Below, one piece after another: positions 14,971 to 25,422 of a DNA stretch of 64,000 nucleotides. A program made the position numbers and the translations under genes. The stretch lies in the IMG/VR virus record IMGVR_UViG_3300021400_001148, positions 224,001-288,000 of that record; one strand, 5' to 3'. The notes under the pieces are model-generated. The model did no database searches and had not been told where the DNA came from. It saw only the letters and a list, made by a program, of their open reading frames with translations. The stretch's first letter is position 1; each line of letters begins with the position of its first letter. This DNA is from a virus. Taxonomy: Duplodnaviria; Caudoviricetes.

Positions 14971-15597
14971 ATGAAAGTTATTCTCACTGAAAGCCAGTTT
15001 AAAACAATGCTGAACGAAGATATTATAATGGAGTCTTTGTTCCGCCGGGGCATGTCTTTCAATGAGATAGTAAATGCAGTAAAAATTGTTGCAAGAAAAG
15101 GCTTGCTTACCGCCAGTCTTATTGCTAATATAGTTTTTACTTTCAAACTCAGCCAATCACAAGCAGAGGTCATTGAAAACATTGCTAAAATAGAGCAGAC
15201 CCAGCCTCAGACAAACAAATGGGTACTCCTTGCAGACGATGTTCTCGCAACCGTTTACAATGCAGTGCCGGCACAATGCAACAAAGATGTGCAACACACG
15301 GCATCTATGTTCAAGTTAAATCTGAACGATGTTCTATCTCATAGGATTATTGCAATGGAGCGTACTATGATGAAAGAATATGGACTGAAATACGGTGATG
15401 TTGTCCGCATAGAAGGTACTGGCAAGTGGGATGGCGAATGGCAGATACAAGATACAATGAATAAACGGTTTGCTGGGCAACACAAGATTGATATCTTGGT
15501 TCCGAACAATATTCGAACAGGAAAGTGGGATAATGTCAAAATCTATGTTCCTGCGAATGAAGAAACAAAACTCGCAGCAAAAGAGCAAATGAGCTAA
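14971..15597 (+). CDS. 3D-domain (RlpA/MltA-like) peptidoglycan-active protein with capsid-targeting-like N-terminus
   Basis: ATVYN....C...TAS, IIA, YGD.V.I, QDTMN.RF, IDIL motifs; N-terminus MKVILTESQF..MLNE. Confidence 0.7.
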   Translation: MKVILTESQFKTMLNEDIIMESLFRRGMSFNEIVNAVKIVARKGLLTASLIANIVFTFKLSQSQAEVIENIAKIEQTQPQTNKWVLLADDVLATVYNAVPAQCNKDVQHTASMFKLNLNDVLSHRIIAMERTMMKEYGLKYGDVVRIEGTGKWDGEWQIQDTMNKRFAGQHKIDILVPNNIRTGKWDNVKIYVPANEETKLAAKEQMS

Positions 15598-15623
15598 AAA
15601 AAGGTGGTATTTTACCACCTTTT
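15596..15623. terminator. bidirectional terminator adjoining the IS1595 insertion site
   Basis: aaaaaaaggtggta-ttt-taccacctttt. Confidence 0.8.
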
Positions 15624-15752
15624 ATTTTGGGAACGATATACTACTTTACACCAATAATCGTGTAAATATTTGAAGTCCAGCGCAAATAACGCTGGACTAT
15701 TTGTAAGATTCCGCTAGTTTTCAGGTATAGATGTGTAGAAAGTACCTGAACT

Positions 15753-16694
15753 ATGAGACTTGAACTTGAACATTTTGACTCCCTTATCTTCCTAGTCAGC
15801 CATTTCAATAGCTACAAACGTTGCCGTGACTTCATTACCAAGCAGCGTTGGGGTAAGGTGGTTGTCTGCCCGCACTGCGGCTCCGTGCATGTTTACACAT
15901 GTAGCAACGGTGATAATCAGTTCAAGTGTGCCGATTGTCACAAGCGATTCTCCTGTCTTGTAGGCACCATCTTCGAAAATACCAAACTGCCCTTGCAGAA
16001 ATGGTTTATGGCTATGTATCTTATCAGTAGCCATAAGAAGGGGATTTCCTCCCATCAGCTTGGACGTGACATCCACGTCACGCAGAAGACTGCATGGTAT
16101 ATTCTCCATAAAGTTCGTACTCTGTTTGCACAGTACGATACTACCGTCCTTTACGGTGAGGTGGAAATGGACGAAATGTACCTTGGTGGACGTGAAACCA
16201 ATAAGCACGAATCCAAGAAAACAGAAGGAACGCAGGGACGTTCCACCAAGACTAAGACTCCCATCTTCGGTATGGTGGCAAGAGAAGGCGAAGCCCGTGC
16301 TCTTGTCGTAAAGGACACCAAGGCTGCTACGCTTTTGCCCATCATCAAACAGTTCGTTGCTGACAATGCTCATATCTTTACGGACGAGCTCAGTTCGTAT
16401 GCAGGTTTGTCTGGTGAAGGATACAAGCACGGCATCATCCACCACGGCGAAAAGGAATATTCTAAGGACGGTATCACCACCAACTCCATCGAAGGTTTTT
16501 GGGCTCATTTCAAGCGCACGGTGTTTGGTATCTATCACTTCGTGAGCAAGGAATACCTTCAGCAGTATATCAACGAATCCGTGTACCGTTACAATACAAG
16601 AAAAGCGAACGAATCCGTCCGCTTTGCCGATATGTTATCCAAGTGTATTGGAGTATGCTCCTATGAAGACGTTAAGTCGCTGAAGGTGGCTTAA
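15753..16694 (+). CDS. IS1595-family DDE transposase
   Basis: CPHC..C..C Zn ribbon, GTIFE.TKL, EMDE.Y.GG, TDE and NSIEGFW motifs. Confidence 0.95.
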   Translation: MRLELEHFDSLIFLVSHFNSYKRCRDFITKQRWGKVVVCPHCGSVHVYTCSNGDNQFKCADCHKRFSCLVGTIFENTKLPLQKWFMAMYLISSHKKGISSHQLGRDIHVTQKTAWYILHKVRTLFAQYDTTVLYGEVEMDEMYLGGRETNKHESKKTEGTQGRSTKTKTPIFGMVAREGEARALVVKDTKAATLLPIIKQFVADNAHIFTDELSSYAGLSGEGYKHGIIHHGEKEYSKDGITTNSIEGFWAHFKRTVFGIYHFVSKEYLQQYINESVYRYNTRKANESVRFADMLSKCIGVCSYEDVKSLKVA

Positions 16695-17005
16695 TCACTA
16701 AGCGTGCTTGCTTCTTGTCTAACTCTATCTGCCCATTGCTTTGCTTTGATAAACCAATTGTCCTCACTATTCGTTCCGTTCATGGCGAGCGAGGATAATT
16801 TCCTTGCAGCCTTTTCTATTATTCGGAGTAACAACAAAGAATCATCACACTCATCAATGAGGGACATTATTTGTCTCTCATATGCAAAGAATTCCGCATT
16901 CCCATTTTCTGTATTAGGATACCCCTCATTCAGCGTCTTTTTTATTGCCCCCGCAATAACCTTGCGGAGTTGTTGTTCATTGAGCTTTATTGTATTCTTC
17001 TTCAT
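16691..17005 (-). CDS. IS passenger protein with capsid-targeting-like peptide (alternative start 17089)
   Basis: MKKNTIKLNEQQLRKVIAGAIKKTLNE; late motif at 17235-17242 inside the element. Confidence 0.65.
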   Translation of the reverse strand: MKKNTIKLNEQQLRKVIAGAIKKTLNEGYPNTENGNAEFFAYERQIMSLIDECDDSLLLLRIIEKAARKLSSLAMNGTNSEDNWFIKAKQWADRVRQEASTLSD

Positions 17006-17055
17006 ATTCTTGTTTGATTTTGATTCGTTAGTTTTATTCTGTATATTTGCATCCG

Positions 17056-17235
17056 AAGGTGTATTAGCGTCAAGTGAAGCAGTATCCATAGGAAGGCGTG
17101 TATTTCCAAAGGATGAACTACCGTCTGTACTGTCAGGGACTTTGATAGCGCTAATTACCTTATGGGTGAATCCGTTTAATCACCAAACAAAAGAACTCCG
17201 TTCTCCCCGTAGTCCTTCGCTGCGGGGTTCTTTTT
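17056..17235 (+). ncRNA. candidate structured small RNA inside IS1595
   Basis: TTTG(17019)-N19-TATATTTG(17042) promoter; 17056-17069 pairs with 17149-17161; nested inner stems; terminator ccccgtag/ctgcgggg plus T run. Confidence 0.55.
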
Positions 17236-17296
17236 ATAAATATGCCTTATTCTCGAAAAGAGTCAAGAGATAGTGTAAACTAGTATATCGTTCCCT

Positions 17297-17680
17297 TTAT
17301 TTTATATATATAGCCAAATCACTGGCAATTGGCACCTTAAGTAGACCCTCCGGATAATCAACCCCATCCTCGGTCAACCCCCCGAGGAAATTTATGTTGA
17401 ACATACCAATGAACTTTCCCCTTTCGTTAGTGTCCCGTTTTTTCCAAGTATACTGTATAATATATTTCTCTTCACAGCCACCGTCCTCTACTTCAAGTAT
17501 TTCACACTTGGCGTTCGAAATTTTAAGGATGTCCGTGTCGGCGTTCCTCATTGAAAAAGTAACATCCGCGTTCTGTATTGCGTTGTAAAACTTATTGAAG
17601 GAATACCTCCCGTCGTTGATGAGTTCCATTCTTAGAACTGGAAGTACTGAGCCTTCGTTTATGAAAAATTCCTGTTCCAT
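17297..17680 (-). CDS. BppU N-terminal-like beta-sandwich structural protein
   Basis: F.I.EGS.LP.L, Y.W...DT...G.F.G.F.I pattern; late motif at about 17698. Confidence 0.55.
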   Translation of the reverse strand: MEQEFFINEGSVLPVLRMELINDGRYSFNKFYNAIQNADVTFSMRNADTDILKISNAKCEILEVEDGGCEEKYIIQYTWKKRDTNERGKFIGMFNINFLGGLTEDGVDYPEGLLKVPIASDLAIYIK

Positions 17681-24572: not shown

Positions 24573-25298
24573 CTACAAATCTTCAATCATTTTCTTCTTC
24601 AACTCATAGTAGGCGAACTTATATTTCTTCATGTTGTCCCTCACTTCCTTTGTAGAAAGAAGCGTGTTTTCACGCAGGTAATAGAGGACTTTGGATTTGT
24701 TAAGTTTGTTAGAGCCGTCATCTGTAAGTATACCCTCCCAATTGTTAAAGAGTTCACAAAGCACACTCCCTACTTTTCTTTCATTGTCAGACAAATGTAT
24801 TGAAGAATCATTCATCATTTCATCAATTTTTTTCGCAATCCCGCTTGTAAGGTCAGAGGCTAAAGTATTCGAATCTGTATTGGTCGAGTAGTCTATGCTG
24901 TTCTGGAACTTCTCGTATGTATCATCATACGGCTCGTTGCGTTCAATTTTTTTCTTGAACTGGTTGATTTTGTAAATCAATTGGTTTTTGCAGATTGTTC
25001 CATAATATGAATACGCCTTATGATGTTTTTCCGGGTCATATTTATCCATTTTTGTGGATAAGAAAGACATTATGTCATTGAAGGTTTCATCAAATTCTTC
25101 TTCCGGAACGAAAAGTTTGTATCTGCGGATAATTGATTCTATCATCTTAGTGAAAGCAGGTTTCAGTATTCCGTTGAATATTTCATTTCGTCTTTCAACA
25201 CTATCTGTTTTAAGGTATTCTTTTACAGCATTTTCTTGCACCTCTGAAAAATACATCTTCTCTGTTTCACTCTTGGGTTTTCTGCCTTTTTTGGCCAT
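24573..25298 (-). CDS. phage sigma factor, late (gp55-like)
   Basis: YF...E.AV..Y, K.D...K...AYSYYGTICKN region-2-like motif. Confidence 0.6.
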   Translation of the reverse strand: MAKKGRKPKSETEKMYFSEVQENAVKEYLKTDSVERRNEIFNGILKPAFTKMIESIIRRYKLFVPEEEFDETFNDIMSFLSTKMDKYDPEKHHKAYSYYGTICKNQLIYKINQFKKKIERNEPYDDTYEKFQNSIDYSTNTDSNTLASDLTSGIAKKIDEMMNDSSIHLSDNERKVGSVLCELFNNWEGILTDDGSNKLNKSKVLYYLRENTLLSTKEVRDNMKKYKFAYYELKKKMIEDL

Positions 25299-25329
25299 TG
25301 TTGATAAAGTTTTATCTTTAATTTTATTA

Positions 25330-25422
25330 ACAACCGCCATCCACGAATTTAATCGTGCTTCTAAGCACACCCCGAAGGGCCTTTCCACTTTGACGTTGAA
25401 GGCCAGCCCTCTGGACTGGCCA
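25330..25422 (-). promoter_or_regulatory. structured 5' leader of the sigma gene
   Basis: GC-rich multi-hairpin island including ggccagtcc/gggctggcc and a cUUCGg loop, after TATTTAT at 25424-25430. Confidence 0.45.

Follow-up and report, generated by a model that had tools for sequence, protein, structure and literature searches.

The insertion sequence located at positions 15629 to 17295 of the window (the whole 64,000-nucleotide stretch analyzed here, positions 224001 to 288000 of a complete 354,809-bp T4-like jumbo phage genome with direct terminal repeats) belongs to the IS1595 family, within which it is classed as a transporter IS (tIS). Its transposase falls in a clade whose members, as shown by branching order and gene neighborhoods, have moved back and forth repeatedly between host chromosomes and T4-like jumbo phages of Bacteroidales. 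Across this clade, the elements display mobility, mostly AT-rich intergenic landing, a cargo slot that is usually convergent on the transposase, and phage-type genes in that slot. The preferred reading, with a probability of roughly 0.55, is that the cargo would be transcribed late in infection, loaded into the phage head via a helix motif, cleaved at a hydrophobic-x-E site, and ejected, the payload being either on the side of the phage or neutral to useful.

IS elements are generally thought to be rare in lytic phages. The phage that harbors this one encodes a T4-like portal, prohead protease (Pfam ID PF03420), major head protein, and terminase, and the shared elements and the promoter type point to Bacteroidales as its hosts. 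The window stretch is held by gut metagenome runs, mostly from ruminants where the source is named.

The element is 1667 bp long and is bounded by 23-nt terminal inverted repeats (TIRs) at 15629 to 15651 (plus strand) and 17273 to 17295 (minus strand) that differ by a single mismatch. Outside of them, at 15621 to 15628 and 17296 to 17303, lie the two copies of the 8-bp target site duplication (TSD) TTTATTTT, which is present in a single copy at the empty site. The initial annotation, which described an intact IS with TIRs identical at 22 of 23 positions, an 8-bp TSD, and a convergent cargo gene inside the TIRs, is correct on all these points; the cargo is a 132-aa open reading frame (ORF) whose stop codon overlaps that of the transposase. 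The 313-aa transposase (15753 to 16694, plus strand) scores above the cutoffs for PF12762 (159 bits), PF12760, and NF033547 (207 bits versus the cutoff of 75), and its zinc ribbon (C39/C42/C59/C62) and acidic residues D140, D211, and E247 are invariant across the transposases. The element thus combines the hallmarks of the IS1595 family, namely, an ISXO2-type DDE transposase with an N-terminal zinc ribbon, TIRs of ∼23 to 27 bp, and an 8-bp TSD (exact in 39 relatives), with that of a tIS, the same passenger cassette being found at two chromosomal sites (L385 and L387).

The insertion occurred in the T-rich tail of a resident hairpin terminator (15596 to 15626, delimited by its inverted repeat and the empty-site joint) that lies between two convergent phage genes. 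The stop codon of the resident minus-strand gene at 17297 to 17680 falls within the right TSD copy, and this gene is now 1.7 kb away from its terminator, in line with the proposed insertion between a stop codon and a terminator. The empty-site allele that the initial annotation suggested looking for is present in contigs from runs X2 and X5, which come from two studies: in them, 15620 is connected directly to 17296 across 8 shared bases and the whole element, passenger included, is missing, so that the insertion is recent and precise. In sample S2, the ends of the element are also seen in other surroundings.

Scans of viral, genome, and metagenome collections with the transposase and the TIR revealed a clade of 49 transposases (support 100/99); the TIR type is present in 91 viral stretches, and a scan with an exact 15-mer from the TIR returned mostly chance matches without a transposase. 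Judging from the neighboring genes, mostly on metagenomic contigs, 19 of the 49 come from jumbo-phage DNA, and 23 are surrounded by chromosomal genes of Bacteroidales, such as aspRS, ksgA, GH43, dxs, MBOAT, and TonB receptor genes. The phage and chromosomal contexts are interleaved, and a minimum of 12 switches is needed to account for the supported branches. One of the bacterial-context members comes from an isolate genome, and in the cultured Hoylesella loescheii An865 a clade transposase is found beside a late-box gene with a degenerate motif. With so many chromosomal members, including the nearest relative of the window copy (L393, located between ssb and a sigma-70 gene), the earlier idea of an IS specialized for phage genomes proved too narrow; the chromosomal members keep the phage-type cargo. 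The 39 exact-TSD insertions include 34 that are intergenic and 20 that lie beside a hairpin, compared to 56% and 22%, respectively, for control AT 8-mers.

Viral contigs also contain 19 TIR-bounded cassettes without a transposase. Some cassettes with IS1595 TIRs and exact TSDs consist mainly of a TnpB-type gene (L066:5003-6440, L110:449-1798, L093:10572-12129, L067:9438-11553, and L217), which was confirmed by the OrfB_IS605 Pfam match and Cas12f1-like similarity in L066, L110, and L217. An omegaRNA-like tract that follows this gene ends ∼25 to 40 nt inside the TIR, and the putative guide slots of L067 and L093 are similar in sequence to the TIR. It is possible that TnpB has been adopted by IS1595.

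The window's phage carries a second IS1595 element at 214799 to 216969 of the genome, ∼7 kb before the window, with a transposase that is 36% identical, a different TIR, and two motif genes; its 89% relative is found in a Bacteroidales genome (L453). Another related IS1595 (45%), represented by L166 to L194 and L317 to L320, occupies many sites in chromosomes and in human-gut phage contigs of 80 to 150 kb; its cargo is variable and lipoprotein-like and lacks the motif. The clade described here and two or more further IS1595 lineages carry genes both ways between Bacteroidales chromosomes and lytic jumbo phages. A literature search that covered few subscription papers yielded no description of the motif or of a jumbo-phage IS1595, and the Jug phage paper does not mention transposases; the phage-host shuttle is broad and, apparently, undescribed.

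Inside the right end of the element, at a distance of 52 nt, a late-promoter-like box TATTTATA (17242 to 17235, minus strand) faces the cargo, just as the initial annotation had noted. The same box occurs in the sense orientation within 60 nt of 46 of the 406 genes and in the antisense orientation of 17, compared to a mean of 7.4 and a maximum of 15 in shuffled controls. Within this 60-nt search window, the resident boxes are 12 to 49 nt away from the starts, with a peak at 21 to 30 nt. Boxes precede the protease and terminase genes, and it is the genes behind the box that suggest its late role. A 255-aa protein encoded at 24573 to 25340 of the window (minus strand) has a weak sigma-70 match (E value of 4e-4) and is a candidate late sigma factor. 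In one subclade (L006, L008, L009, L012, L298, L301, L303, L304, L307, L083, L089, L128, and L131), an outward-facing late box is found 46 to 47 nt from an element end; such boxes could restore late transcription of the neighbors.

The cargo contains a predicted helix motif that ends in L-N-E (16925 to 17005, minus strand) and, by analogy with T4, is a candidate head-targeting tag; it is N-terminal if translation starts at ATG 17005. A motif profile built solely from resident genes recognized 18 resident ORFs across the genome, including 5 within the window, with no hits in reversed controls, and gave the cargo 19.6 bits, the lowest of the six window matches. The statement that about 10 resident proteins carry the same peptide is right about the sharing, but the likeness is a family resemblance rather than identity. 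The L and E at the motif end are near-invariant, and where the motif is internal, another E site often lies shortly before it. No match to the motif was found among PDB sequences or GenBank phages.

Genes with this motif were identified in 17 of the 31 complete autonomous elements of the clade and in none of the 57 more distant passenger-carrying IS1595 elements; ∼45% of the clade elements are without it. In phages, there are 15 motif genes per 38.6 kb of cargo as opposed to 10 per 276 kb of flank, an ∼11-fold difference, while each of the 15 chromosomal elements contains an ORF that lies no more than 60 nt from a late box, compared to none in 77 kb of flank; these counts are treated as strong patterns and not as P values, because the elements share ancestry and their independence is overstated. 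The box is at the canonical distance in 15 of the 17 motif cargos of autonomous elements, and 25 motif-containing cargo proteins, once the motif is masked, fall into 21 clusters. A search in the opposite direction is concordant: each of three complete bacterial genomes has the motif a single time, within the element, and a survey of 702 Bacteroidales genomes (see below) places it mostly beside IS1595 transposase genes. Relatives with varying cargo that retain the box and the peptide, which the initial annotation proposed to look for, are therefore seen across the clade, and they refute a one-off capture.

Cargos without the motif include several phage BspA-LRR genes. No known function was found for any of the payloads, and a comparison of 10 cargo proteins with PADLOC models produced one weak match (E value of 0.0075). 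An N-terminal cargo domain of 150 aa, which contains IR.SNH and DPL motifs but has no Pfam assignment, recurs in the relatives L294, L296, L226, L392, L393, L200, and L428; it weakly resembles YbjN/secretion chaperone-like folds (Z score of 6.5, rmsd of 4.2, 102 aligned residues). Two-gene cargos in L008, L219, L444, L445, L447, and L457 consist of a short acidic ORF followed by an ORF of 140 to 275 aa, in some cases motif-ended. By eye, they resemble a RelE/ParE-type pair; Pfam searches gave no confirmation.

A comparison with L393 illustrates how payloads differ between close relatives. This element and the window copy are 96.4% identical over 15629 to 17026 (∼1.4 kb), with only 3 differences between 15849 and 17005. 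The identity stops 21 nt above the MKKN start, at a junction near 17027, past which L393 has a 324-aa ORF and a divergent 152-aa ORF. As many as 36 of the 44 differences fall within the first 220 nt (15629 to 15848), so that the left end is recombinant too. The common plan of close relatives includes a late box, a variable N-terminal domain, a linker with an E site, the motif, a variable C-terminal domain, and a divergent second ORF. The pairs L218/L307 and L011/L305 have a common 5' region plus ∼25 codons and are different beyond, and the L152/L301 and L008/L219 pairs have common cargo across transposase subclades. The simplest reading of these alignments is that recombination at the motif-coding DNA exchanges payload domains.

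An intrinsic terminator, a hairpin with a U-tract on the cargo strand, is embedded in the 3' coding region of the transposase gene (16625 to 16602, minus strand). Terminators of different sequence are found at the same position in 14 of 29 clade transposases, compared to 1 of 48 in the outgroup, and in these 14 clade genes the hairpin beats all 20 synonymous shuffles. Such embedded terminators indicate that the cargo slot is old and transcribed.

Payload exchange could also come from neutral capture followed by a recombination ratchet. Late genes that are short, dispensable, and self-contained would be acquired by the IS in the vicinity of its AT-rich targets, and, once a first motif gene had been captured, homology at the 80-nt motif DNA would swap in further motif genes, with no gain to the element and with host copies being recent. 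This is possible but rather unlikely. It agrees with the breakpoints at the motif, with cassettes that contain ordinary phage genes with resident homologs, with AT-rich intergenic targets, where late boxes cluster, and with the presence of about one copy per bacterial genome, but not with the motif enrichment over the flanks of the same insertions, the evolution of a terminator within the transposase gene, the purifying selection on the cargo domain (see below), or the same kind of cargo in at least three distant IS1595 lineages.

The chromosomal copies bear on a different alternative. The motif was detected in 22 of 702 Bacteroidales genomes (two of which were seeds), so that a phage-type motif gene is present in ∼3% of the sampled genomes, in most cases next to such an element: at 17 of the 28 places where the motif occurs, an IS1595 transposase lies within 1.5 kb, with three or more lineages represented, and a TIR is found at 2 more. 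The late box is kept in 15 of 15 chromosomal copies versus 10 of 14 phage copies, which a purely phage-side benefit does not predict and which counts against the preferred reading. One cassette is nearly unchanged at two chromosomal sites, and another is found at one site in many of 24 contigs. These features would suit a host-side Trojan defense, in which the chromosomal cargo would stay silent until the arrival of a jumbo phage late sigma factor, whereupon the tagged protein would enter or jam the proheads and spoil the progeny; the divergent host-promoter ORF could then be a regulator or an immunity partner. The toxin-antitoxin-pair-like look of some cargos and one weak PBECR3 match (E value of 0.003) fit as well. 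Nevertheless, such a defense is quite improbable, given that phage genomes themselves often contain intact elements and cassettes without a transposase (the window's phage has two), that no PADLOC match rose above noise, and that T4-like phages often degrade host DNA ahead of late transcription.

In the window copy, exactly 30 open codons precede ATG 17089, as the initial annotation had estimated. The cargo probably starts at ATG 17005, which has an A-rich context upstream and at which homologs of 102 to 107 aa start; two of these have a late box 22 to 27 nt upstream. From this start, the 104-aa cargo core (16691 to 17005, minus strand) comprises the 27-aa motif and a 77-aa helical domain, and its homologs are free-standing genes with 56 to 58% identity, one of which adjoins the end of an apparent other transposase. 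The in-frame 5' extension of 28 aa from ATG 17089 (17006 to 17089, minus strand) contains the linker T-N-E-S-K. The suggestion of a captured gene fragment can apply to this extension only, since the core is a whole module that also exists as free genes. Derivation of the 5' open frame from the N-terminal cargo domain of the relatives was considered and rejected, with no similarity detectable between them.

The 77-aa domain forms only three clear clusters among 1.8 billion representatives and, judging from a dN/dS of ∼0.1 against L409 and L414, with dS near saturation, is under purifying selection. The cargo model has four helices (pLDDT of 63) and no Foldseek match at an E value of ≤0.001; searches of Pfam, PHROGs, NCBIfam, PADLOC, and the ESM Atlas suggested no function.

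The box is separated by 145 nt from ATG 17089 and by 237 nt from ATG 17005, compared to 12 to 49 nt in resident genes, and a host-type antisense unit stands in between. This unit starts with a match, TTTG-N19-TATATTTG (17019 to 17049, plus strand, antisense to the cargo), to the Bacteroidetes promoter consensus, as a putative promoter, and continues as a predicted ∼180-nt unit (17050 to 17235, plus strand) that ends in a strong terminator (17205 to 17235); its 3' 65 to 90 nt are common to the element L010. The motif itself has GA in place of the near-invariant ES, so this copy may be weakened. The distant box, the intervening antisense unit, and the lack of ES in the window copy count against the preferred reading, as does the internal position of the motif in 10 of the 25 cargo proteins (it is N-terminal in 15), unlike the N-terminal T4 capsid-targeting sequence (CTS). 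The ∼45% of clade elements that have no motif, and the failure to match any payload to a known function, weigh against it as well. A search of the minus strand from 17242 to the cargo revealed no terminator, so that late transcripts from the box, or from the terminator-deprived resident gene, can reach the cargo. A 246-nt contig from RNA run X9 covers 16627 to 16872 but was set aside, because contigs reveal neither the strand nor the expression level and the run may include DNA. The unit at 17050 to 17235 matched no Rfam family at threshold, and the folding z-scores of the leader were not significant. The leader hairpin was discarded as a distinctive feature, as its generic terminator shape occurs in unrelated phages.

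Small units of the same layout, with a host-type promoter, a leader, a terminator, and then an opposite-facing late box, are found in the window (17050 to 17235, plus strand), L010 (5016 to 5250, minus strand), and L301 (4560 to 4780, plus strand). Those in L010 and L301 encode a related 23- to 25-aa peptide with W..KVLDL..RM behind a strong Shine-Dalgarno-like sequence; the window copy is without it. This layout resembles type I toxin-antitoxin systems with a phage-driven antisense RNA.

The proximity of the late box to the terminator of the small opposite-strand unit in these three elements would agree with an inward box that serves mainly to produce an antisense RNA, limiting transposition or silencing the host-promoter unit, and the often internal position of the motif with a generic oligomerization or partner-binding helix. 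Both proposals together are very unlikely. The cargo-strand terminator holds the antisense overlap with the transposase gene to ∼90 nt, and the motif ends in hydrophobic-x-E, in internal copies often with the second E site upstream, as in T4-type protease sites; a comparable site, L-M-T-E-A, occurs in the major head protein.

According to the preferred reading, the phage late RNA polymerase would transcribe the slot, which in the window copy would be reached from 17242 and also by transcripts running on from the late gene at 17297 to 17680. The motif would dock the cargo protein into the assembling prohead, where a gp21-like protease would cut after hydrophobic-x-E on one or both sides of the motif, and the payload would be ejected into the next cell. 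The element could persist in lytic genomes if its payload, such as an accessory or counterdefense protein, were neutral or useful to the phage, with host chromosomes as a silent reservoir and mixing ground. The window copy would then be a recent recombinant that is missing the N-terminal domain and the second ORF of L393. An extension of this reading, which is doubtful, is that gut IS1595 elements have made a portable plug-in of the late promoter and the head-loading tag of the jumbo phage, whereby any domain that recombines next to the tag would be made only late and packed in virions, whether encoded by the phage or by the chromosome. If so, chromosomal copies would represent a new form of defense or manipulation, in which a protein of the cell is loaded into the heads of the invader for delivery to the next cell. 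The swaps mark candidate tag boundaries and provide more than 20 natural payloads, which makes the motif function and the idea of a phage-head protein carrier directly testable.

Several known systems share parts of this arrangement. PLE, PICI, and Tab/Tai-type assembly inhibitors are defense genes activated by phage late transcription, and the chromosomal copies similarly contain a host-resident gene behind a promoter that, putatively, only an infecting phage should read; unlike those systems, the same elements also reside in phages. Pack-MULEs are TIR-bounded transposons that capture and shuffle host-genome genes. The IS1595 elements resemble them in the TIR-bounded capture, fusion, and shuffling of genes from the resident genome but are prokaryotic, carry intact cargo frames of one gene class, and move between virus and cell. 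Internal proteins of T4 are loaded through propeptides of 10 to 20 residues that are removed by gp21 (PMC5694885). The likeness to them includes a short peptide on unrelated small proteins, a late-type signal, a hydrophobic-x-E end, and an encoded gp21-like protease; unlike the T4 CTS, the motif is ∼25 aa long, internal in 40% of the cargo proteins, and transposon-borne. The closest parallel in architecture is with the IS1595 tIS, such as MTnSag1/tISSag10 and tISCpe8, and the transposase-less cassettes described by Siguier, Gagnevin, and Chandler in 2009 (as cited in PMC5704250 and PMC8496243), which have the same zinc-ribbon DDE transposase, ∼25-bp TIRs, 8-bp TSD, passengers inside the TIRs, and nonautonomous derivatives. 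Whereas the passengers of those tIS are resistance or regulatory genes, the passengers of the clade described here are phage-type late genes; its members also live in lytic jumbo phages, have payloads swapped at a peptide-tag sequence, and keep the terminator of the cargo embedded in the transposase gene.
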